Source: Candidatus Poseidoniaceae archaeon
Lineage (GTDB): Archaea > Thermoplasmatota > Poseidoniia > Poseidoniales > Poseidoniaceae
Assembly: GCA_949373095.1 (NCBI GenBank)
Contig: CASIBY010000007.1
Location: 20,087 to 84,086, forward strand
Direction: 5' to 3'
DNA length: 64,000 nucleotides
Shown here: positions 454-54,507 of the stretch, piece after piece
Layout of the letters: each line of letters starts with the position of its first letter
How positions within the stretch are numbered: position 1 is the stretch's first letter
The notes under the pieces: generated by a model
What the model was told of the DNA's origin: nothing
Databases searched by the model: none
Seen by the model: the letters and a program-made list of their open reading frames with translations, nothing else
Position numbers and translations under genes: made by a program

Positions 454-1249
454 CATTCAAACGGGACCGAGTGGACCATTCATCATGGCCATCACGTATC
501 GAAGTAGTAATCCTGTCCTCAACAACAAATTCATGGCAGCACTTACCGGTGTTGAGACCATGAGTCTACAAGGTAGCCTGCGAAAAATTGGTTTGCTTCT
601 AACCTTGACCATCGTTTCTGCATTTGCAACCGCTATAGTTTGTTTGAATGCTGGCGAAAACATGTTCCTCTATGCTGGCATATTCACTGTTGTCGGTGCC
701 ATTTTTGGCTTCATCCTAGCCATTATTACGTTTGTAAGTCGTCCACAAAATCCTGCGGCTTTGATGAGTCTTTATGCACTTTTTCAAGGTATGCTGGTCG
801 GTGGCATGTCACTTGTTCTGGAGACACAATATCCAGGAATTGTACTCCAGGCAGCCTTTGGAACCGTAGGAATTACCGCTACAATGTACGTCATGTATTC
901 ATCCCGAATCATCCGCCCAACACCGATGTTCAACAAGGTCATTGGGGGACTTGTGATGAGTATCATGTTCCTCTACCTAACATCCTTTATTCTTGGAATG
1001 TTTTCCGGGTATGATGTACCCTTCCTCCACAGTTCAGGACCGATTGGAATAGGCCTTACTCTGTTTATTTTGGTAGTTGCCTCTCTCACACTCATCAGTG
1101 ACTTTGGATTTATTGAAGCGGGAGTTAAGAACGGTGCTCCGAAGAATATGGAATGGTATGCTGCATTTGGCATCCTCGTCTCACTCATTTGGATTTACAT
1201 TGAATCGCTAAGACTCCTTTCCAAGATCCGAACCTTCATTCAGGAATGA
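428..1249 (+). CDS. Bax inhibitor-1/YccA-family (UPF0005) integral membrane protein
   Basis: About seven hydrophobic helices. Composition and spacing are typical of the BI-1/YccA family (…LYALFQGMLVGG…YSSRIIRPTP…). The true start may be an internal Met (~482). Confidence 0.5.
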   Translation: MFNTVKQNNIQTGPSGPFIMAITYRSSNPVLNNKFMAALTGVETMSLQGSLRKIGLLLTLTIVSAFATAIVCLNAGENMFLYAGIFTVVGAIFGFILAIITFVSRPQNPAALMSLYALFQGMLVGGMSLVLETQYPGIVLQAAFGTVGITATMYVMYSSRIIRPTPMFNKVIGGLVMSIMFLYLTSFILGMFSGYDVPFLHSSGPIGIGLTLFILVVASLTLISDFGFIEAGVKNGAPKNMEWYAAFGILVSLIWIYIESLRLLSKIRTFIQE

Positions 1250-1256
1250 GACAATT

Positions 1257-2204
1257 ATGGCGAGGGAAATTCCAACCGTTGACTTCACCTTAGCTCAATC
1301 TTCTCAGGAAGACGAGCGGAAGGAGTTTGTTCGTCAAGTAGGAGATGCCCTCCACGACATCGGGTTTTTCGCACTCATAAACCACGGTATTGATACAGAA
1401 CTGATTATGGATGCATATGACCAGTGCGACCGTTTCTTTGAGTTGGATGATGTCACCAAGCGTTCGTATCTACTCCCACATATCGCCCACCAACGTGGAT
1501 ATACCGCATTCGGTGTTGAACATGCAAAGGACAACCCTGCACCCGATCTCAAAGAGTTCTGGCAGACTGGAAGGGCCTATCCAAGCGACGGCCCTGCACC
1601 AACCTATCCACAAAATGTATGGCCGAATCAGCACGCACCAGAGTTCCGAAATGTCATTGACCACCTCTACACCGACATGGAAGTGCTGTCAATGCGGTTG
1701 CTTGAAGCATGTTCACTTTACCTTGACATGCCTGCGGATTGGCTCCCAGACATGGCTGAACATGGAAATACCATCATGCGAATGATTCACTACCCCCCAC
1801 TTGACACTTCGATGCCCAAAGGTGCGGTTCGTTCTGCTGCGCATGAGGATATCAATTTCATCACACTCTTGGTGACCGCTACGGCTGATGGACTCGAAGT
1901 AATGGACCACGACGGTTCTTGGATTCAAGTCAAAGGAGACGAGAAGGCAATCATCGTTGACTCTGGAGACATGCTCCAAAACCTAACGAACGGATTGTTC
2001 CGTTCCGTTACCCACCGAGTCGTAAATCCCAAAGATTCCACTTCCCGCAGATATTCAATGCCGATGTTTGTCCATCCAAGAAACGAAATCGACCTTACGC
2101 CGCACTCTGATTTCGTAGGAAAAAATGGGGGAGTCGTAAACTATCAGAGTATCAAGGCCGGAGATTATCTCCAACAACGCCTCCGTGAAATTGGGCTAAT
2201 CTGA
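1257..2204 (+). CDS. 2-oxoglutarate/Fe(II)-dependent oxygenase (isopenicillin N synthase-like family)
   Basis: N-terminal DIOX_N-like region (VDFTL…FFALINHGI), an HxD…H facial triad context (HEDINFITLL…, THRVVNP) and the RYS motif near the C-terminus. Confidence 0.7.
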   Translation: MAREIPTVDFTLAQSSQEDERKEFVRQVGDALHDIGFFALINHGIDTELIMDAYDQCDRFFELDDVTKRSYLLPHIAHQRGYTAFGVEHAKDNPAPDLKEFWQTGRAYPSDGPAPTYPQNVWPNQHAPEFRNVIDHLYTDMEVLSMRLLEACSLYLDMPADWLPDMAEHGNTIMRMIHYPPLDTSMPKGAVRSAAHEDINFITLLVTATADGLEVMDHDGSWIQVKGDEKAIIVDSGDMLQNLTNGLFRSVTHRVVNPKDSTSRRYSMPMFVHPRNEIDLTPHSDFVGKNGGVVNYQSIKAGDYLQQRLREIGLI

Positions 2205-2213
2205 GGTTGAGAG

Positions 2214-3527
2214 ATGGACGTCGCCCAACTGATAGAATCTGTTGTGGCTAATCAAGGTCAAGACCACGCCCTTCTTGACGCATTTGTGAATGGAGTAGCA
2301 GATGGAGAAGTTGCTGTGGAAGACGCCACGGCGTGGCTCAAAGCCGTACACAGTTTCGGTTGCAGTGTGGAAGATACCGTCCAGCTCACAAAAACCATGA
2401 TCGCTTCTGGAGCCCAACTCAAGTGGGGAGATGGACCCCCTGTTGTCGATAAGCACAGCACTGGTGGAGTTGGTGACAAGATGTCATTGATGCTCGCACC
2501 GGCACTGGCGGCATGTGGACGCAGAGTACCCATGCTCGCTGGAAGAGGCCTTGGCCACACGGGTGGAACCATTGACAAATTGGAATCGATTCCTGGGTTC
2601 AATTGTAAACTTGACCCAGAGGAAATGAAAGCAGCAGTCAACGCCATTGGATGCTGTATTGCCGTGCAAAACGACGCTATTGCTCCTGCTGATGGAGTTC
2701 TATACGCAATACGAGATGTTACGGACACCGTAGATAGCGTTCCACTAATCACTGCATCAATCATCTCAAAGAAAGCAGCAGAGGGACTTGATGCCCTTGT
2801 TCTTGATGTGAAGTGCGGAAGCGGAGCCTTCATGAAAACACTGGCTCAAGCAGAGGAATTAGCCACGTCTATGGTACGAACTGCAAAGGGGCTCGGCATC
2901 AAAACTATTGCACAAATCACCTCCATGGAACAACCGATTGGCAGTCATGTTGGAAATTCGTTGGAAATTATTGAGAGTATCCAAGTCATGCAGGGAAAAG
3001 GCTCAGTTGATACCAGGAACCTTGTCATTCTTCAGGGAGGTGCACTTCTGGCTATGACTGAGGATGGGCTTAGCATAGAGGATGCAATCAAGCAAATTGA
3101 ACAATCACTTGACCGTGGTGATGCCCTTGAAGTATTCCGACTCATGTGCATTGGACAAGGAGTTCAGCCGGAACTTGCTTCTATCCTTGTCAAGGAACCC
3201 AAATCGGTCTTGCCGGTGAGTGAACATCAGACTACAGTTCTCTCACGTCAATTTGGACACGTTGGGGGTATTGACTCAATGGCTGCTGCACTGCTCGCCA
3301 AACAACATGGAGCTGGACGATATGCTCTTGAGGATGAGGTCGTTCCGGAAATTGGTTTCGTGTTCCATGTTGCGCAAGGGTCAACCATCGAAGAAAACCA
3401 ACCTCTACTAACCTTCCATCATAATCAAGAATTAACCGATAAGGAACATACAATCCTACAAAACCTCGTTGAAATGGTGAAAGTGTCAGTGCCGACCATT
3501 GAACGCTTGTTGTCAATCGTGGACTGA
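2214..3527 (+). CDS. deoA: thymidine/pyrimidine-nucleoside phosphorylase family protein
   Basis: The DKHSTGGVGDKMSLMLAPALAACG signature plus a glycosyltransferase family-3 fold. A length of 437 aa fits the thymidine phosphorylase type. Confidence 0.8.
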   Translation: MDVAQLIESVVANQGQDHALLDAFVNGVADGEVAVEDATAWLKAVHSFGCSVEDTVQLTKTMIASGAQLKWGDGPPVVDKHSTGGVGDKMSLMLAPALAACGRRVPMLAGRGLGHTGGTIDKLESIPGFNCKLDPEEMKAAVNAIGCCIAVQNDAIAPADGVLYAIRDVTDTVDSVPLITASIISKKAAEGLDALVLDVKCGSGAFMKTLAQAEELATSMVRTAKGLGIKTIAQITSMEQPIGSHVGNSLEIIESIQVMQGKGSVDTRNLVILQGGALLAMTEDGLSIEDAIKQIEQSLDRGDALEVFRLMCIGQGVQPELASILVKEPKSVLPVSEHQTTVLSRQFGHVGGIDSMAAALLAKQHGAGRYALEDEVVPEIGFVFHVAQGSTIEENQPLLTFHHNQELTDKEHTILQNLVEMVKVSVPTIERLLSIVD

Positions 3528-3570
3528 GGGTGGCGAAGCCGTCATAAAGGGGTGGCCTGTCGCCAACCTT

Positions 3571-3643
3571 GCCGATTTAGCTTAGCTGGTGGAGCGTGGG
3601 ACTGTTAATCCCAAGGTCGTGGGTTCGAGCCCCACAATCGGCG
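3571..3643 (+). tRNA. tRNA-Asn (anticodon GTT); CCA encoded at 3644-3646
   Basis: Manual cloverleaf fold: 7-bp acceptor stem gccgatt/aatcggc, D stem gctt/gagc, anticodon stem tggga/tccca with loop ctGTTaa, T arm gtggg-ttcgagc-cccac, discriminator G. Confidence 0.85.
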
Positions 3644-3667
3644 CCATGATTTTCAATTCAATGGGGA

Positions 3668-4639
3668 TTATTCCCATTCAATTGTACCAGGGGGCTTGTG
3701 CGTAATATCGTAAACAACTCGGTTCACAGCCCCTTTGACGGTGTTGGTAATCCGAGTGCTGATCTTCTGTAAAATACTGTGAGGTATTTCAGAATAACGA
3801 GCAGACATTCCATCTATCGACTGGACTGCACGTACAACAATAGTCTCACCATATGCACGAACGTCACCGTGGACACCTACGCTGCGAACTGGTAGAAGAG
3901 CAGCAAAGTACTGCCATGGAATTTCCATTTCACCACGCTCAGCAGCAGCTTCAAACTCTTCCTCGACAATTGCGCATGCTTCTCGCACAACGGCAACACG
4001 CTCTGGTGTAAGTTCGCCAAGCGTGCGGACAGCAAGGCCTGGCCCCGGGAAGGGTTGACGCTCAGCAACGTTAATCTCAAGATGGCGAGCGAGTTCACGA
4101 ACTTCATCCTTGTAGAGGTCACGTAGTGGCTCTACGACGGTCAGCGTCATGTCCTCTGGAAGACCACCAACATTGTGATGGGATTTGATGGTGTCACGAA
4201 CACCACCACCAGATTCAATCCAGTCCGGGGCAATGGTTCCCTGGACGAGATATTTTGCTCCGCATTTCTTTTGCTCATCTTCAAAAATACGAATAAATAA
4301 TTCACCGATGACCTTACGCTTTTGTTCTGGCTCAGTGACGTCTTTGAGCGCCTCAAAGTATCTGTCGGCAGCCCTCACTGTCACCAAATTGATACCCTGC
4401 TCTTCAAGGAGGGCTTCGATTTGCTCAGTCTCATCTTTCCTCATGAAACCCGTATCAACATATACACAGTGAAGCAAATCACCAACTGCTTGGCTTGCAA
4501 TAACTGCAGCCACTGTTGAATCAACTCCACCCGAGCAAGCGATAATAGCGATGTCGTCAATGGTAGATTTGAGGGATTCAATACTCTCTGAGATGAATTC
4601 CTCAGTGTCAAACATTTCAGGCACCGCCGTTGACATCAC
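3668..4639 (-). CDS. guaA: GMP synthase subunit B (ATP pyrophosphatase domain, archaeal split GuaA)
   Basis: PP-loop SGGVDSTVAA plus a conserved C-terminal GMP synthase dimerisation region. The ORF extends to 4849, but the likely start is MSTAVPEMFD at about 4639, which overlaps the purE stop. Confidence 0.8.
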   Translation of the reverse strand: MMSTAVPEMFDTEEFISESIESLKSTIDDIAIIACSGGVDSTVAAVIASQAVGDLLHCVYVDTGFMRKDETEQIEALLEEQGINLVTVRAADRYFEALKDVTEPEQKRKVIGELFIRIFEDEQKKCGAKYLVQGTIAPDWIESGGGVRDTIKSHHNVGGLPEDMTLTVVEPLRDLYKDEVRELARHLEINVAERQPFPGPGLAVRTLGELTPERVAVVREACAIVEEEFEAAAERGEMEIPWQYFAALLPVRSVGVHGDVRAYGETIVVRAVQSIDGMSARYSEIPHSILQKISTRITNTVKGAVNRVVYDITHKPPGTIEWE

Positions 4640-5123
4640 GGTCTTGGGCTTTAACTCGCTCAATTTGGTCCAATTTGTTTTGTTCCAAAGCTGCTGCATA
4701 TCTGGGGTGAATGAGTGCGAGCATCTGAACTGCAAGATATCCTGCATTGTCTCCACGGTCAACGCCAACGGTGGCCGCTGGGACACCAGGAGGCAACTGA
4801 GCAATGGAAAGAAGTGAATCGAATGGAACCTTTCCACCGCATGGGACACCGATGACAGGTTTGGTGGTCAGAGCCGCAACTGCACCAGGCAGAGCCGCTG
4901 CAAGTCCAGCCATAGCGACGAAGATTTGACATCCGTCATCCAAAGCATCTCCAACGATTTCTTCAACAAACTTTGGAGACCGGTGAGCGGAGGCAACACG
5001 CAATTGGTAAGGAACCTCAAACAGTTCCAAAATTTTAGTACACTTTTGAGCAATAGGTAGGTCCGAAGACGAGCCGAGTAGAATCGTTACATCCATGCTA
5101 CCCTGCCGGCGCGGGTGGTTCAT
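4617..5123 (-). CDS. purE: N5-carboxyaminoimidazole ribonucleotide mutase
   Basis: Typical PurE sequence (…ILLGSSSDLP…RVASAHRSP…GVPCGGK…). Confidence 0.8.
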   Translation of the reverse strand: MNHPRRQGSMDVTILLGSSSDLPIAQKCTKILELFEVPYQLRVASAHRSPKFVEEIVGDALDDGCQIFVAMAGLAAALPGAVAALTTKPVIGVPCGGKVPFDSLLSIAQLPPGVPAATVGVDRGDNAGYLAVQMLALIHPRYAAALEQNKLDQIERVKAQDRDVNGGA

Positions 5124-7498: not shown

Positions 7499-8844
7499 CG
7501 CCCAAGGTCAAATCCACCAATAATTCCATTATCGTCAAGATAGGCAAGACAGGCTTCAGCTGAACCTTCAATTTCAATTGCGAATTCGTTGAAGTGGGGG
7601 GCGTCGTGAACAATTCTAACACCTGGAGTTTCAACCAGCACTTCCTTTGCTTTTTGGCAGGCAGCAGCGTTACGATAGGCCAAATCATGCAACCCATCTG
7701 GGCCGAGCAGAGCCATGTGCATGGCGCCCATCAAGGCAATGAGAGTCTCGTTTGTACAGATGTTTGAGGTTGCACGGTGGCGACGGATATGTTGCTCTCG
7801 AGTTGAAAGAGTAAGACAGTATGCTTCTTTTCCGTCAACATCTACAGACCGGCCTACGATTCGACCTGGCATCAAACGGAGGTAGGGTTTGCTACAAGCG
7901 AAGATACCGTAGAGTGGACCGCCTGCAGTCACAGGGCTTCCAAGCGGTTGACCTTCGCCCACCACGATATCTGCTCCATAATGGCCTGGCGCTTCTACCA
8001 TTCCGAGTGAAACGGGCTGGACTCCAACGATAAGGGCAGTATGTTCGCCTATAATCTCCTTTGTTTTAGTTAGGCCTTCATCCAGCACGCCAAGGGGGTT
8101 TGGTTGTTCAAGGTATACTCCACATGAACCAGCAGCCGTCTTCAAGGAGTCAAGATTGAGTGTTCCATCAGCGTTATGTTTCAATGTCTTGATGGTGATC
8201 TCAGCACCTTGGCAGTAATTTTCCATCACCGACATTTTGTCGGGTGAGGTCAATGATGAAACATATACAGTGTTGGGTTGGCTTGCTTTTCTACTGTGAA
8301 CTCGAACAGCGCAGGTCAAGGCTTCAGCGGCCGCAGTAGAGCCGTCATAGAGTGATAGATTGGCGATTGGGAGCCCGACCAACTCAGAGATAAGAGATTG
8401 GAATTCCCACATTGCCTGAAGCATACCTTGACTCACTTCGGGCTGGTAAGGAGTATAGGCAGTCAAAAATTCACCACGAGTTACAAGCTGAAATACGGAT
8501 GCTGGAATGTAGTTTCGGTACAACCCTGCTCCCAAAAAGGAAGTACGACTGCCCATAGAAATGTTAGCTCCAAGAATGCGACGAGCGTCACTAAGAATCT
8601 CTTCTTCAGACTGCGGAGGGCGAAGCGGAAGGGGACCTTTGAACCTCACTTCATCGGGAATATCAGAAAACAAATCTTCCATATCCTGGAGACCCATTGC
8701 CTTCAACATCTCATCTTCTCGGCCAAGGTTTGGAAGTTGGTCAACCATTGCAATCACCTCACCCTGCGGGTGTATGATGAAATCCATGCGCGTCCCGCTC
8801 ATAATGCATTGCTTTGGCCCACATGGGTCAGGGGAACACCTCAT
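7375..8844 (-). CDS. gcvPA: glycine dehydrogenase (decarboxylating) subunit 1
   Basis: Typical GcvPA sequence. The likely true start is an internal Met (MVDQLPNLGREDEMLKAMG…EDLFSDIP, ~8748) or MDFII (~8787). Confidence 0.85.
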   Translation of the reverse strand: MRCSPDPCGPKQCIMSGTRMDFIIHPQGEVIAMVDQLPNLGREDEMLKAMGLQDMEDLFSDIPDEVRFKGPLPLRPPQSEEEILSDARRILGANISMGSRTSFLGAGLYRNYIPASVFQLVTRGEFLTAYTPYQPEVSQGMLQAMWEFQSLISELVGLPIANLSLYDGSTAAAEALTCAVRVHSRKASQPNTVYVSSLTSPDKMSVMENYCQGAEITIKTLKHNADGTLNLDSLKTAAGSCGVYLEQPNPLGVLDEGLTKTKEIIGEHTALIVGVQPVSLGMVEAPGHYGADIVVGEGQPLGSPVTAGGPLYGIFACSKPYLRLMPGRIVGRSVDVDGKEAYCLTLSTREQHIRRHRATSNICTNETLIALMGAMHMALLGPDGLHDLAYRNAAACQKAKEVLVETPGVRIVHDAPHFNEFAIEIEGSAEACLAYLDDNGIIGGFDLGRWYPSITNQILITTTDQTTQQDIEALSAQLSMWTSHQGVSA

Positions 8845-19137: not shown

Positions 19138-19870
19138 GGCCGTGGTAAAGGGCGTAGCCACATCATCGTGGGTCATTCTCAAGAGATGGTTTCCAAACTA
19201 TTCCTCATGGTCACGGCCCCGAACTGCTTTGTTTCTACTTTGTATCTATCTCTTAACAGCAGCCACTCCGTACATTCTCACGAATCAGATTGCGGCCTGG
19301 AGGGATGTCTCTCTGTTCAATCCTGAAAATTTCATTGATGACATGATACCCTATATGCCTTGGACCATCGTGTTCTACTTTTCTTTCTACCTTTACTTCC
19401 CCATCGTTGCCTGGTACGGTTCTGGAGAAGGGGAACGAAGATTAGAGGGATTTATGTTCCACATTTACCTAACACTTTCCACATGGTTGGCTTGTGTTTT
19501 GTTCATTGCCACCCCCGTGAAAGTGAATCTGCGCCATCAAGTCAGCTTTGGTGATGGTCTCTTTGATCCATTTCTCGCGTCGCTTCACGATGCCGACCCA
19601 CCGTTCAATTCATGGCCGTCTCTCCATGTATTTCAGAGTCTACTCATCATCCTTGTCATGCGTCGATGGATGATGAAGGACAAAAAGTGGACCAAAATTC
19701 ATTCAATCATCGTTGGAATATGTTGGAGCCTTCTGGTCCTCTCGACCATGGGGATCAAGCAGCATTACATGTTTGACGCCGTAACCGGCATAATGTTTGC
19801 AATCGGTGCGTGGTACTTTTGTGTTCGAAGACTCAACCAAGCAAAGCGCCCACTGATTGAGGGTTTGTGA
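19031..19870 (+). CDS. PAP2-superfamily membrane phosphatase
   Basis: PSLHV (PSGH-like) and HYMFDAVTG (HxxxD) motifs with multiple TM helices. The likely start is a GTG at ~19142, 5 bp after the upstream stop. Confidence 0.55.
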   Translation: MDKHPLQYLTLALHASKSSSPNGMFARTVEQDNKGEAVVKGVATSSWVILKRWFPNYSSWSRPRTALFLLCIYLLTAATPYILTNQIAAWRDVSLFNPENFIDDMIPYMPWTIVFYFSFYLYFPIVAWYGSGEGERRLEGFMFHIYLTLSTWLACVLFIATPVKVNLRHQVSFGDGLFDPFLASLHDADPPFNSWPSLHVFQSLLIILVMRRWMMKDKKWTKIHSIIVGICWSLLVLSTMGIKQHYMFDAVTGIMFAIGAWYFCVRRLNQAKRPLIEGL

Positions 19871-21299
19871 GATAAATAGTAAGTCCAACTCCGGCCATAA
19901 TCATCATCCAAGAGCCTACCATTTTGATCATGCCCGTAGCTCTTCGCAAGAAGTTAATCATGACTTGGCGGCCCATACCAACCAGCATGGTTACAATCAC
20001 CATGAGAATCAGTAAGCCAGCCATCAATCCTGCCACACCAAAAGCGATTGCAGTAGTGCCGAGTGTGCCCAAAAAGATAACAAACGGGAGAACGGCTGCT
20101 GCCGTACAATCAATTGACGCAGCTGCATATCCAATGCCATAGAGATACATATTACGGCGGGGAGTGAAGGTTTCGTCCATCTCAGTTGTACTGTATTTGT
20201 CAACCCAGTTCTGAACGAATCCCATCACGTGTGATGTCACTCCAAGAAGCATCATTGAACCGAGCACAATGAGAAGAATTGCGACGAATATAGCGATGGT
20301 GTGGATAATACCGGAGGAAGCAAAAAATTCACCCATAATGAGTGCTAGAATTCCAATAAAGCCGAAGAATGTCCACATCCCAAGCCCTGAAAGGATTCCA
20401 ATGTTGAACGAACTTGGCATGCCGGTTTTCAACTTCCCTTGCTCAATTAATTCATCTTCTCTAGCACCGAGTGAAAGATAGTACGAGATGAATCCAGGGA
20501 GCACTGGGAAGGCACATGGGGAAAAGTAAACGAGAATGGACAATACCATCCCGAGGGCGAACACTGCAGCAACCGAAGTGCTGGGTTCTTCCCATCCAAT
20601 TCTTGAATCGAATGTCTCAGTCGTATCTTCAGAAAGTGCCGTCATGAGGGTGCCTTCAAAGGAAGCCCAACCGTCCGCTGGCGTTCCCGTTGGTTGTTGC
20701 TCGATGATGTACCCTTCTTTGTCCAAAATCATGACCACTGGTATTTGTCCTGCACCTTTCGTAGTAAAAAGACGAACAGGGTCAGTTGTTGAGCCGTCTT
20801 CAAGAATGGCTGCCTCAGTTGAACCAAAGCCTGTTGGATACAATGGGACCGTGTACTCTTTCTTGCTCTCATTCATGTACTCAATGGATTCACTATACCA
20901 AGCACCATATGCAAAAATCTTCAGCGACGTGTTGTTTTCGGCTGCAATCGACTGCCATTCGTTCATGTTCTCCTCAAGATGAGCCTGCACGGCGTGACAG
21001 TTGCTGCAATCTCGGGCCATCAAATCCAATATGATGATACTCCCACGATGGTCATCAAGGTTGAACCAACCTGTCTCGTTGGTCAGACCAGCTTCAACAT
21101 CAGAACGGTTGAGAGATTCAAAGACAAGATTTGGAATTGGAGCTGGTTCTGCATCGGATTGAAACAATTCATCCATGCTGTCAAACATGGATAGCGCAGC
21201 GAAGGAAATGGTTACAAACATGACGAGGGCGATTCCAAATGCCTGCCATGTTGTTTTCTCCTTGAAAACGCCGAAATCGACCTGGTCAAGGAACCCCAT
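19833..21299 (-). CDS. thiol:disulfide interchange protein, thioredoxin-like domain fused to a CcdA/DsbD transmembrane domain
   Basis: An N-terminal TM helix, a Trx-fold region with a CSNC motif, and a C-terminal multi-TM region with a …FSPCAFPVLPGFISYY… CcdA-like motif. Confidence 0.65.
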   Translation of the reverse strand: MGFLDQVDFGVFKEKTTWQAFGIALVMFVTISFAALSMFDSMDELFQSDAEPAPIPNLVFESLNRSDVEAGLTNETGWFNLDDHRGSIIILDLMARDCSNCHAVQAHLEENMNEWQSIAAENNTSLKIFAYGAWYSESIEYMNESKKEYTVPLYPTGFGSTEAAILEDGSTTDPVRLFTTKGAGQIPVVMILDKEGYIIEQQPTGTPADGWASFEGTLMTALSEDTTETFDSRIGWEEPSTSVAAVFALGMVLSILVYFSPCAFPVLPGFISYYLSLGAREDELIEQGKLKTGMPSSFNIGILSGLGMWTFFGFIGILALIMGEFFASSGIIHTIAIFVAILLIVLGSMMLLGVTSHVMGFVQNWVDKYSTTEMDETFTPRRNMYLYGIGYAAASIDCTAAAVLPFVIFLGTLGTTAIAFGVAGLMAGLLILMVIVTMLVGMGRQVMINFLRRATGMIKMVGSWMMIMAGVGLTIYLTNPQSVGALLG

Positions 21300-21449
21300 G
21301 CCTCATACTAGGCGACGGTCGTTCAATAAAGTAGCCCAAGCCAGTTCTCATTAGTGCTTGTCATATTATTCAAGTTTGAACCATTCCCATTGCTGTAGCG
21401 TCCCGATTCAGGTGGTCTTGAATGGTCCGATACATACTCAGGGGACTCC

Positions 21450-21637
21450 TGGTGGGCTCGGTCGGAATTGAACCGGTGTCAGTGAACAAAACGCTTGGAT
21501 TTGAATTGTTCATGACTGGTTCAATTCGGCCTATGGAATCAGATGGTGGGCTCGGTCGGAATTGAACCGACGTCAGTGAACAAAACGCTTGGATTTGAAT
21601 TGTTCATGGCTGGTTCAATTCGGCCTACGGAATCAGA
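21450..21637. repeat. two tandem 94-bp direct repeat units, each containing a copy of the tRNA-Val 3' end
   Basis: Units start at 21450 and 21544; a third partial unit at 21638 is the tRNA gene itself. Unit B shares 29/29 nt (tggtgggctcggtcggaattgaaccgacg) with the tRNA-Val 3' end. Unit A shares 26 nt and then has 2 mismatches. Each unit also contains the hairpin tgaacaa-N16-ttgttca and an inverted partial T-arm copy (ggttcaattcgg). Confidence 0.8.
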
Positions 21638-21640
21638 TGG

Positions 21641-21713
21641 TGGGCTCGGTCGGAATTGAACCGACGATCTTCGCCATGTGAAGGCGACGTCATAACCCCT
21701 AGACCACGAGCCC
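21641..21713 (-). tRNA. tRNA-Val (anticodon CAC); CCA encoded (complement of 21638-21640)
   Basis: Manual fold on the minus strand: acceptor gggctcg/cgagccc, anticodon stem tcgcc/ggcga with loop ttCACat, T arm gtcgg-ttcaatt-ccgac, discriminator A. Confidence 0.8.
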
Positions 21714-21758
21714 TAGGTAATTCTCCGACCCGCCTCACGAATTTAAGCCATACTGTGC

Positions 21759-22883
21759 TCAACGGTGCTGGTTTAGATGGACCACTCCGACTTCGAGTCG
21801 CTCGTGGGTTGGATGGACTTCCACCAGCATCACAGGCACCTCAAGCACCTCAGCCAGTTCCTCTGCGAGCGTAAGGGGCAATTCAATTCGCTGTGTTGTT
21901 CCATCGTAGCGAATCCATCCATCTGCAATCCCTAATTCTTGTTTGAGTTCACTGATGTCATCGTTCGCATCTTGAAGTTCAGCAGGAATGGCTCCAAACA
22001 GAATGGTATCATCATCACTGAGCACTTCGTATGGTCTCAATGTCGCCTGACCACGGCGCTTGAAACGGCTCCTTAACTGACCTGCATCCTTGTATTTTGC
22101 AGTACAGAACTTCAAGTGATACGATTTATCTTCAGCAGCTTCTTTCAGGCGTAGAGCAAGTTCTGCCGAACCTTCAGCCGCAGCGGTAATTCCACCGCTA
22201 AGATTGAATCCTCTTACGTCCATGTTCTCTTGATTGCCGACTGTAATTTCTAATTCATTCAAATTTAGGAATTCTACGGGGACTGTTTCAAGTTCGTCAA
22301 GAAGGGCAAAAAGCCCTTCCTCATTATCGGGCTCACAAGGCAATTCAACACCAACAGTGATGCTATGCAGGCTACATGCTTCCATCGTAGCACGGTATTT
22401 GTCAGTCGTCCCACTCAACAAGTGAAATCGGATTTCATCCAACCCGGCTTCGCCGAAATCCTTTGCACGTAGCGGGTCAAACGGAATTGAAGTGTAGACG
22501 TGGATGTGATGTTCAGGGCCAAATGCGGCCTTCAGTTGTCGGACTGCTTCAAGTGTTTTCTCCAAATCAAGCATCGGGTCACCTCCAGTAATTCCTGTAC
22601 CCGTCGCTTTCATTGCATGGCCTTCCTCAATGACTTCATCCCAACTTGTACATCGGCGCTCATTTGCAAACATGTCTGGAGTCTCACGACGGTTTTCGGA
22701 AAGTGGGCAGTAATCGCAACCCCAATGGCACTTTCCTGTGACAAAGAGAACCAATTTACTACCTTGTTGACATTGAATGCAACCCTCTGCTTCACCGTCT
22801 TCTGCGGGTAGAATCTCGGTAGCCATAGGTAAATTTCGCATCATTCCGCCCCCTTGGTATATTGTGCCTGAGAGAGCAGCCAC
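21759..22883 (-). CDS. radical SAM domain protein
   Basis: A CHWGCDYCP (CxxxCxxC) cluster, a glycine-rich SAM motif GITGGDP, and a C-terminal extension. The likely start is an internal Met (MRNLP or MATEILP). Confidence 0.65.
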   Translation of the reverse strand: MAALSGTIYQGGGMMRNLPMATEILPAEDGEAEGCIQCQQGSKLVLFVTGKCHWGCDYCPLSENRRETPDMFANERRCTSWDEVIEEGHAMKATGTGITGGDPMLDLEKTLEAVRQLKAAFGPEHHIHVYTSIPFDPLRAKDFGEAGLDEIRFHLLSGTTDKYRATMEACSLHSITVGVELPCEPDNEEGLFALLDELETVPVEFLNLNELEITVGNQENMDVRGFNLSGGITAAAEGSAELALRLKEAAEDKSYHLKFCTAKYKDAGQLRSRFKRRGQATLRPYEVLSDDDTILFGAIPAELQDANDDISELKQELGIADGWIRYDGTTQRIELPLTLAEELAEVLEVPVMLVEVHPTHERLEVGVVHLNQHR

Positions 22884-54371: not shown

Positions 54372-54445
54372 GCCAACGTAGCACAGTCTGGTAGTGCGTC
54401 TGATTTGTAATCAGACGGTCGGGGGTTCGAGTCCCTCCGTTGGCT
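54372..54445 (+). tRNA. tRNA-Thr (anticodon TGT); CCA encoded at 54446-54448
   Basis: Manual fold: acceptor gccaacg/cgttggc, D stem gcac/gtgc, anticodon stem tctga/tcaga with loop ttTGTaa, T arm ggggg-ttcgagt-ccctc, discriminator T. Confidence 0.85.
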
Positions 54446-54507
54446 CCACATCAGCGTTTGAGTTTTGGAAACAGTCCTTGATATACTCAACCCAGCACTT
54501 TCAGTAC

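Follow-up and report, generated by a model that had tools for sequence, protein, structure and literature searches.

A hairpin repeat carrying the 3′ end of tRNA-Val(CAC) is reiterated directly downstream of the tRNA gene in Poseidoniaceae archaea

A stretch of 64,000 nucleotides from a Candidatus Poseidoniaceae archaeon (assembly GCA_949373095.1, contig CASIBY010000007.1, forward-strand positions 20,087 to 84,086; hereafter the window, in whose numbering all coordinates without a locus name are given) contains a tRNA-Val(CAC) gene with two tandem units arranged head-to-tail directly 3′ of it, each with the terminal nucleotides of this tRNA. Comparison with relatives firmly establishes that these units belong to a real and reproducible hairpin repeat family, which carries the tRNA-Val 3′ end and is conserved across an archaeal family; equally firm is its confinement to one locus, where it is sized by recombination between direct repeats and borders a slot of variable genes. 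That the unit of ~94 nt is found solely at the tRNA-Val(CAC) 3′ end in Poseidoniaceae and is inherited with the locus is well supported, and no description of this repeat was found in the literature searched. The intact tRNA gene occupies 21638-21713 on the minus strand and encodes its CCA (ARAGORN; Rfam tRNA model, 65.7 bits), and its 3′-terminal 29 nt (21638-21666, minus) are the reiterated sequence. The proximal unit 1 (94 nt, 21544-21637, minus; 91.8 bits with covariance model R1) includes an exact 29-nt copy of it at 21544-21572 (minus), and the distal unit 2 (94 nt, 21450-21543, minus; 97.9 bits), built like unit 1, an exact 26-nt copy at 21450-21475 (minus), so that an intact minus-strand gene with two extra copies of its 3′ end, as claimed in an earlier note on this DNA, is confirmed. 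The 94-bp spacing given there is likewise reproduced: Tandem Repeats Finder, which delimits both units, finds a repeat of period 94 at 21450-21666 (2.3 copies, 96% matches), and a 25-mer of the tRNA-Val 3′ end occurs at exactly three sites, 21450, 21544 and 21638, with 0 expected from shuffles. The units are 96% identical, differing at four positions (21476, 21477, 21515 and 21534), are the only matches of model R1 in the window, and beyond the last 26-29 nt have no similarity to tRNA-Val. ARAGORN and Rfam call the genuine tRNA-Val alone and no tRNA in the units, not even at E<=10, and no Rfam family matches the units. No 3′-end duplications were found at the other tRNA genes of the window, Asn and Thr. 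The 3′ CCA is encoded in all three of these genes, Asn-GTT (3571-3646), Val-CAC (21638-21713) and Thr-TGT (54372-54448); many archaeal tRNA genes do not encode it.

Read along the tRNA strand, a window unit consists of a 12-nt leader, a left arm GGCCGAATTGAACC, an inner stem-loop and the tRNA-end copy, the latter comprising the T-arm, the acceptor 3′ strand, the discriminator base and CCA. The left arm is complementary to the T-loop and the 3′ strand of the T-stem and pairs with these segments of its own unit, forming an outer stem that encloses an inner stem of 9-10 bp; the linker between hairpins is made up of the last ten bases, GAGCCCACCA, and the next leader. Repeat finding and folds place the left arm, an inverted T-arm-like copy, at 21612-21625 in unit 1 (minus; plus strand GGTTCAATTCGGCC) and at 21518-21531 in unit 2 (minus), both sites reading GGTTCAATTCGG(CC). 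The inner stem-loop of unit 1 lies at 21572-21610 (minus strand GCCATGAACAA, 16-nt loop, TTGTTCACTGAC) and shows the conserved bulge of one base as well as a C.A mismatch peculiar to this unit; that of unit 2, belonging to subtype A defined below, lies at 21478-21516 (minus strand GTCATGAACAA, 16-nt loop, TTGTTCACTGAC) with the conserved bulge. The 7-bp inverted repeat TGAACAA/TTGTTCA that had been pointed out in each unit together with an inverted partial T-arm was located, as was the latter, in both (21483-21489/21506-21512 and 21577-21583/21600-21606), the 7-bp repeat being a portion of a longer stem of 9-11 bp. In unit 2 the 5′ strand of the T-stem is ACCGG, not GTCGG. Folding each unit and running ARAGORN, as had been proposed, gave one hairpin per unit and one called tRNA: as RNA, unit 1 (-23.9 kcal/mol, z -2.7) and unit 2 (-27.3 kcal/mol, z -4.6) each form a single long imperfect hairpin; as DNA, unit 2 folds at -14.1 kcal/mol (z -3.7), and both single strands fold alike into the hairpin with z about -3.7. 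One nested hairpin fold is shared by 35 of 37 distinct units of the family, with a mean energy of -28 kcal/mol. When the whole precursor (tRNA and both units, 21440-21720) is folded, the 5′ acceptor strand of the tRNA is paired, in the minimum-energy structure, with the acceptor sequence repeated in unit 1 and not with its own 3′ strand; in such a model the tRNA-end copies could compete in precursor folding.

Conservation was analysed in an alignment of 30 units, which shows conserved stems and a leader and loop that are essentially randomised between clades. Pairing within the inner helix is 99.3%, double-sided changes occur in three of its pairs (3-4 pairs with compensatory changes), the observed covariation score is reached in 0 of 500 shuffles, and sliding the partners by 1-3 columns reduces pairing to 20-47%. 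Three stem subtypes are distinguished, A (GTCATGAAC / GTTCATTGAC), B (GCAACGAAC / GTTCGTTTGC) and C (GCCAAGAAC / GTTCTTTGGC), all of which keep an identical one-base bulge, an asymmetric internal loop and an invariant GAAC/GTTC at the stem tip; since just three subtypes exist, the independent compensatory events must be few. Covariation with the tRNA variant is seen in the outer helix too: C19-G86 is present in most units, in unit 1 of the relative L012 a CCAACC T-arm is paired with T19-A86, and in the window a C.A mismatch is retained at position 19/86. The three positions 5′ of the T-loop copy (71-73), unpaired in the long hairpin, vary freely (GCC, ACC, GTC, GCA, ACA), and such variants often disrupt the tRNA-type T-stem, as in the ACCGG and GCAGG units; the constrained fold is therefore the long hairpin, not the T-arm. 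The subtype-A stem is nearly invariant in sequence across deep divergence, which suggests sequence-specific recognition beyond pairing alone. The tRNA-end copy remains near-identical to the resident tRNA where the adjoining leader has diverged beyond recognition. G.U and A.C mismatches fill 18 versus 7 cells, or, by a tally from the alignment, represent roughly 7 versus 6 independent events, giving no clear strand signal; T-runs occur inside 1 unit against 3.0 +/- 1.6 expected, a depletion that is not significant.

Relatives were searched with two patterns, and L-numbers denote their contigs or loci (L001 is ERZ27250237 k141_196182; L210 is an extended locus on the same contig as L012). Pattern 1, combining the inner stem with the T-loop and used for genomes, detected units in the genomes of six Poseidoniaceae species, in each case immediately 3′ of tRNA-Val(CAC), besides four bacterial matches attributable to chance. 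Pattern 2, the inner stem without any tRNA sequence, gave 87 metagenome hits, about 22 of which are genuine units, the rest being chance matches in unrelated sequence, mainly from non-marine samples. The search of related genomes that had been suggested thus yielded copies, all of them at tRNA-Val(CAC): ARAGORN calls this tRNA immediately 5′ of the units on every contig that includes it, and on contigs starting within an array the units are identifiable from their tRNA-Val 3′-end copies. Taken together, at least 7 species genomes and about 22 metagenome contigs carry units. An array comprises 1-3 of them, each measuring 90-97 nt (mostly 94 nt), with a variable leader of 10-17 nt, an inner stem of 9-10 bp, a variable loop of 13-20 nt and CCA usually present. 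The orthologous locus L199 holds a subtype-B unit outside the reach of the search patterns, hence the family is wider than the sample. L002-L010 and L200 have no unit (in L200 a T7 run directly follows the tRNA), and L202 and L206 retain a remnant only; because of such lineages the units are to be regarded as widespread but dispensable. Since independent assemblies of relatives carry units at the same site, the array architecture is not an assembly artefact; it recurs in several species and on contigs of 140-660 kb, and the irreproducibility that the earlier note had named as grounds for dismissal was not encountered, 1-3 units being present at the same site in independent assemblies.

The history of the array can be followed in the same loci. 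Outside the tRNA-end copy, pairwise identity of subtype-A units correlates with that of the 488-aa membrane protein encoded downstream (Pearson r=0.82 over 153 pairs, which are non-independent), implying that the units diverged together with the locus. Close relatives with a common distal junction differ in copy number (L020/L024 versus L079), L059 has a single unit, which is a hybrid between units 1 and 2 of the window, and the unit-less sites of L002-L010, where tRNA-CCA passes into native downstream sequence, are exactly 94 nt shorter than L011; copy-number shifts, the hybrid and empty sites shorter by one period are as expected from unequal homologous recombination between tRNA-end copies. 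L011 itself was downgraded as a proof of presence and absence within one species: its downstream gene is diverged, and it is possibly a recombinant or another species sharing the upstream gene. Subtypes are mixed within single arrays (B-A-B, B-A, C-A). Distal copies are often truncated, at differing points, and stem-breaking changes accumulate in the truncated copies, as in unit 3 of L024, a distal copy without T-arm. In L059 the tRNA-Val(CAC) gene (7898-7973, minus) has a wholly different T-arm (GAGAG TTCGATT CTCTC) and an altered base pair in the anticodon stem, which suggests replacement of the internal part of the gene; its flanks and next unit are almost identical to those of the window, and because this unit retains CCGGTTCAATTCCGACC despite the different T-arm of the tRNA, the T-arm copy of a unit is not simply re-copied from the adjoining gene. 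Pieces of 31 nt at L011:7300-7330 and L101:2531-2561, each a 17-nt leader-like sequence with a 14-nt tRNA-end copy (...TAGGCCGAGCCCACCA), look like units that have lost the whole hairpin by excision between directly repeated GGCCG sequences at the base of the stem.

Gene order is conserved (PdxT - radical SAM - tRNA-Val - 488-aa membrane protein), and cargo genes of relatives sit between the array and the 488-aa gene. In L026 a 1383-aa NB-ARC/STAND NTPase gene (526-4677, minus) is located between two degenerate tRNA-Val 3′-end copies (near 482-501 and 4720-4740) and followed by the 488-aa gene; it looks like a one-gene cassette of defence type; PADLOC reported nothing significant for the cargo. 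In L101 an open reading frame (ORF) for a 101-aa zinc-ribbon/transmembrane protein separates unit 1, whose tRNA end is degenerate, from a hairpin-deleted unit, after which the 31-nt piece follows. In L086 the last unit switches to other sequence inside the T-loop (junction GGTTC|GAGTTCGGGAGTGCGGCCA), and what lies beyond the junction reads, by eye, like part of the 3′ end of a putative other tRNA. The close relatives L012/L210 (6447-14484) and L059 have ORFs of 632 and 2045 aa with about 40% GC, which begin inside the last unit, and this island replaces the sequence from within that unit to the motif TGGGCTAC(A/T)TT(C/A)TT(G/C)AAC described below; the 632-aa ORF has no domain match, the 2045-aa ORF matches P-loop/AAA-like (AAA/helicase-like) domains. 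In the unit-less lineage L200/L201 (2820-3092) a gene for a 90-aa YgaP-like transmembrane protein lies between tRNA-Val and the 488-aa gene, i.e. variable content occupies the same slot.

We favour, with a probability of about 0.4, the reading that the units form a resident and reiterated recombination module of att type, located at a hotspot linked to the tRNA and changed in size by unequal recombination. It is favoured because conservation of the tRNA-end copy, most of which lies beyond the hairpin, far exceeds that of the leader, because cargo boundaries in several relatives fall in tRNA-end copies, and because mixed subtypes occur within single arrays; a conserved tRNA-end copy beside a diverged leader is the pattern expected of a recombination core. 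Confinement to the tRNA-Val(CAC) site, the changes in copy number with clean empty sites, and precedents in Prochlorococcus and Poseidoniales (cited below) also count in its favour. The first unit would have been formed by recombination at the tRNA-Val 3′ end, after which the array would expand and contract, even to zero, through unequal homologous recombination between tRNA-end copies of 24-29 nt. Downstream copies would offer secondary recombination points for cargo entry, with the true tRNA thus left intact, and the conserved palindrome might be what a putative recombinase, with its gene elsewhere, recognises, in the form of a DNA duplex or of a folded single strand. Several observations speak against an att-type module. 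Pfam search of the 14 long ORFs submitted from 15.0-28.7 kb returned no integrase or recombinase, and a crude regular expression for tyrosine-recombinase box II, a weak test applied in six frames to the whole window, found no match, so the absence of a nearby integrase asserted by the earlier note holds as far as tested. Scanning the 632-aa and 2045-aa ORFs of the L210 island revealed no integrase either; this island, having no distal tRNA-end copy, resembles a replacement rather than a clean site-specific insertion. IMG/VR viral contigs contain no unit-like sequence and no matching tRNA-end core, no metagenome hit presented a unit in a non-chromosomal context, and a 94-bp duplex circle is implausible as an integrating substrate. 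Units co-diverge with the host gene and in this resemble a resident feature, not a recurrent invader, and the conserved bulge in three covarying subtypes together with free variation at 71-73 favours a folded strand, RNA or single-stranded DNA (ssDNA), over duplex half-sites.

According to the main rival, the units are a structured RNA co-transcribed with the tRNA: the 3′ trailer of tRNA-Val, composed of protein-recognised hairpins that are released at tRNA 3′-end processing, the tRNA-end copy being kept merely by concerted evolution with the tRNA and the cargo reflecting an unrelated property of a tRNA-linked flexible island. We regard this as possible, though on balance unlikely. Inner-helix covariation with a conserved bulge and internal loop, concentration of variation at unpaired positions, and constraint on the long hairpin, so uniformly folded, in units that often do not keep T-stem pairing are what such an RNA should display; the units lie on the tRNA strand without an internal promoter-like AT-rich stretch, are inherited vertically at a single locus per genome, and in one clade (L016, L045, L084, L107) a T6-T7 run follows the array, an observation that is only suggestive, whereas in unit-less L200 the T7 run comes directly after the tRNA. 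An RNA function is opposed by the missing strand signal in mismatches and the non-significant depletion of T-runs, by a subtype-A stem more invariant in sequence than pairing alone requires, by the lack of an Rfam family match and by loss of the unit in several lineages, and it leaves the near-perfect conservation of GAGCCCACCA, outside the hairpin, unexplained. Folding of both DNA strands agrees with an integron-like single-strand system, in which the hairpin would be an attC-like ssDNA site, the 94-nt units "empty cassettes", the ORFs between tRNA-end copies real cassettes and the tRNA 3′ end would play the attI role, with an integrase acting in trans, as in CALIN arrays (attC clusters without integrase). 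Of all readings it would account for the largest number of observations. In its favour are an imperfect hairpin with extra bases conserved on one arm, a variable terminal loop, conservation of length rather than of sequence, head-to-tail units at a single site, and ORFs between successive tRNA-end copies in L026 and L101. Nevertheless its prior is the lowest of all, and the units do not pass the attC box test: one arm carries two GAAC boxes in direct instead of inverted orientation, so that the folded site does not mimic an R/L core site, and ATTGAAC/GTTCAAT, which agree with R''(RYYYAAC)/R'(GTTRRRY) at only 6/7 positions, are located mid-stem rather than at the hairpin base. No IntI-type integrase was seen, the upstream genes being those for a radical SAM protein and PdxT, cassette-like cases number two only, and the survey of archaeal integrons names neither Poseidoniales nor Thermoplasmatota in its main text (PMC9668308). 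We consider an integron-like system quite improbable.

A function of any kind is dispensed with if a one-off rearrangement produced the palindrome, slippage or unequal crossing-over copied it, and gene conversion within the palindrome, not selection, kept its arms complementary. Such a neutral by-product would suit window units that are local duplicates with 96% identity, a copy number varying between strains and a unit dispensable in some lineages; it is improbable in view of hairpins staying intact where the neighbouring protein is only about 70% identical and leaders and loops are randomised, of three compensatory stem subtypes sharing one bulge, and of truncated distal copies without T-arm which do gain stem-breaking changes (L024 unit 3). 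Short tandem repeats are prone to mis-assembly, and the L001 contig does break at the tRNA end; yet an artefact, or ordinary tRNA pseudogene copies, may be almost disregarded, given the recurrence in many independent assemblies and species, the negative ARAGORN and Rfam calls and a tRNA similarity ending after the last 26-29 nt. Among the identities offered by the earlier note, the "unrecognised tRNA-derived structured repeat" fits best, since throughout Poseidoniaceae a conserved family of hairpins, with compensatory changes in the stem, accompanies tRNA-Val(CAC). Its "decayed integration hotspot" survives as a hotspot, with cargo in or after the array in L026, L101, L086 and L012/L059, and not as a decayed one, the window units being intact and structure-constrained. 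"Att-site remnants" are not supported for the two window units, which are intact, co-evolved with the flanking gene and of a length that is uniform across species, and random decay of larger elements would not give this. The classical attL/attR footprint fails as well, with no integrase present and merely about 65 bp between repeats. Taken more broadly, the unit might be an unrecognised element acting as a folded strand, either an attC-like gene-capture site at tRNA-Val for defence-type cargo without linked integrase or a family of protein-recognised RNA hairpins from the tRNA-Val precursor, a proposal made tentatively and with more doubt than confidence.

A number of other candidates were tried and rejected. 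A second tRNA, a pseudogene or a split tRNA is excluded by ARAGORN and Rfam and by the absence of a 5′ acceptor strand. Excising one 94-nt period as an intron restores the tRNA, but the T-loops would oppose each other as a 7x7 internal loop, not as the staggered 3-nt bulges of a bulge-helix-bulge. C/D-box or kink-turn RNA motifs are missing in most species; a CRISPR-like array does not suit a conserved part of 75 nt beside variable parts of no more than about 12 and 19 nt; likeness of GTTCCAGT...GAAC to an origin-recognition box is limited to one clade and was taken as coincidence. The abundant Marine Group II non-coding RNA Tan1 (PMC5069720), 229 nt long, from Thalassoarchaea and with no tRNA-gene link reported, was set apart by its description, not by sequence. 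An integrase at the far end of the L012 island was dismissed on the extended locus L210, which shows just two large ORFs and no distal tRNA-end copy, and a virus or plasmid attP after four IMG/VR scans (tRNA-end core, hairpin pattern, L012-island protein) found no unit-like site or relative.

Upstream of the tRNA in the window lies the gene for the radical SAM protein (21759-22883, minus; Pfam), which served as the query for orthologous loci. Its longest ORF, 374 aa with a GTG start, overlaps the upstream PdxT-like ORF; the homologues, annotated as Ca. Poseidoniaceae or Poseidoniales (Marine Group II), are 360-361 aa long, and because of this the true start is probably ~13 codons inside. The L001 contig, with a radical SAM protein 97% identical to that of the window, stops exactly at GAGCCCA, the tRNA-Val 3′ end, a typical short-read assembly break at a repeat array. 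Downstream, the conserved 488-aa membrane protein (19833-21299, minus), an orthologue of which gives a weak DsbD_TM match, is preceded ~30 nt upstream of its ATG by TGGGCTACTTTATTGAAC (21321-21338, minus), the distal edge of the variable zone. The corresponding motif TGGGCTAC(A/T)TT(C/A)TT(G/C)AAC is conserved in L002, L011, L019, L023, L083, L090, L101 and L210, and from its position alone is probably the promoter (transcription factor B recognition element/TATA box) of the 488-aa gene. TGGGCT is complementary to AGCCCA of tRNA-Val. Between the last CCA and this motif the window has ~110 bp (21340-21449, minus) that are absent from unit-less relatives (by comparison with L002 and L210) and whose first 37 nt are ~57% identical to the leader, left arm and inner-stem start of a unit; the segment may, as a weak call, be a decayed partial third unit, and model R1 has no match in it.

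The uncultured archaea of Marine Group II rank among the most abundant in the plankton, and very little is known of their mobile elements, recombination systems and small RNAs. A structure-constrained repeat at a single tRNA gene provides a searchable marker for a slot where genes for STAND-type NTPases and giant ATPase-like proteins come and go, and the unit is a defined substrate for finding its recombinase or RNA-binding protein. A practical consequence is that short-read assemblies break at the array.

Among known systems, tRNA repeats of the attL/attR type are similar in having an intact tRNA followed by direct repeats of its 3′ end, a hotspot of variable genes and, in relatives, cargo bounded by degenerate copies. 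Comparable partial-tRNA repeats mark repeated integration in the tycheposon islands of marine Prochlorococcus (bioRxiv 10.1101/2020.12.28.424599), and in Poseidoniales themselves Charybdis elements with integrases insert beside tRNAs, the tRNA being unspecified (bioRxiv 10.1101/2025.08.03.668216). In contrast to attL/attR, the unit has about 65-68 bp between repeats, a uniform length across species and a covarying hairpin, no integrase or element body was found by the array, and inheritance looks vertical; as to occupied versus empty alleles, the latter are represented by L002-L010 and L200, and cargo between copies only by L026 and L101. Integron attC sites and CALIN arrays share imperfect hairpins, conserved extra bases, variable loops, conservation of structure and length, arrangement at one site and an integrase that is sometimes not nearby, and archaeal integrons reported so far are mostly arrays without integrase (PMC9668308); the unit differs by lacking the R/L box arrangement and IntI, by its 94-nt spacing with almost no cassette content and by its anchor in the tRNA 3′ end. 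Miniature inverted-repeat transposable elements and other palindromic non-autonomous elements are also short and have inverted arms around a small loop, but the unit occupies a single genomic site instead of being dispersed, one of its arms is the tRNA's own sequence, and no target-site duplication abuts both arms, a leader of 10-17 nt separating the left arm from the repeat. At E. coli tyrT, Egan and Landy reportedly described in 1978 units of 178 bp repeated 3.14 times, each with the last 19 nt of tRNA-Tyr, and these are likewise tandem, immediately 3′ of a tRNA gene, co-oriented with it and part of its trailer; there is no sequence relationship, and the archaeal unit is a long palindrome with an inverted T-arm copy, found family-wide and with compensatory changes. 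In arrangement the feature resembles known tRNA-end repeats, both attL/attR footprints and E. coli tyrT, and its difference from them is a compact covarying palindrome conserved across an archaeal family.

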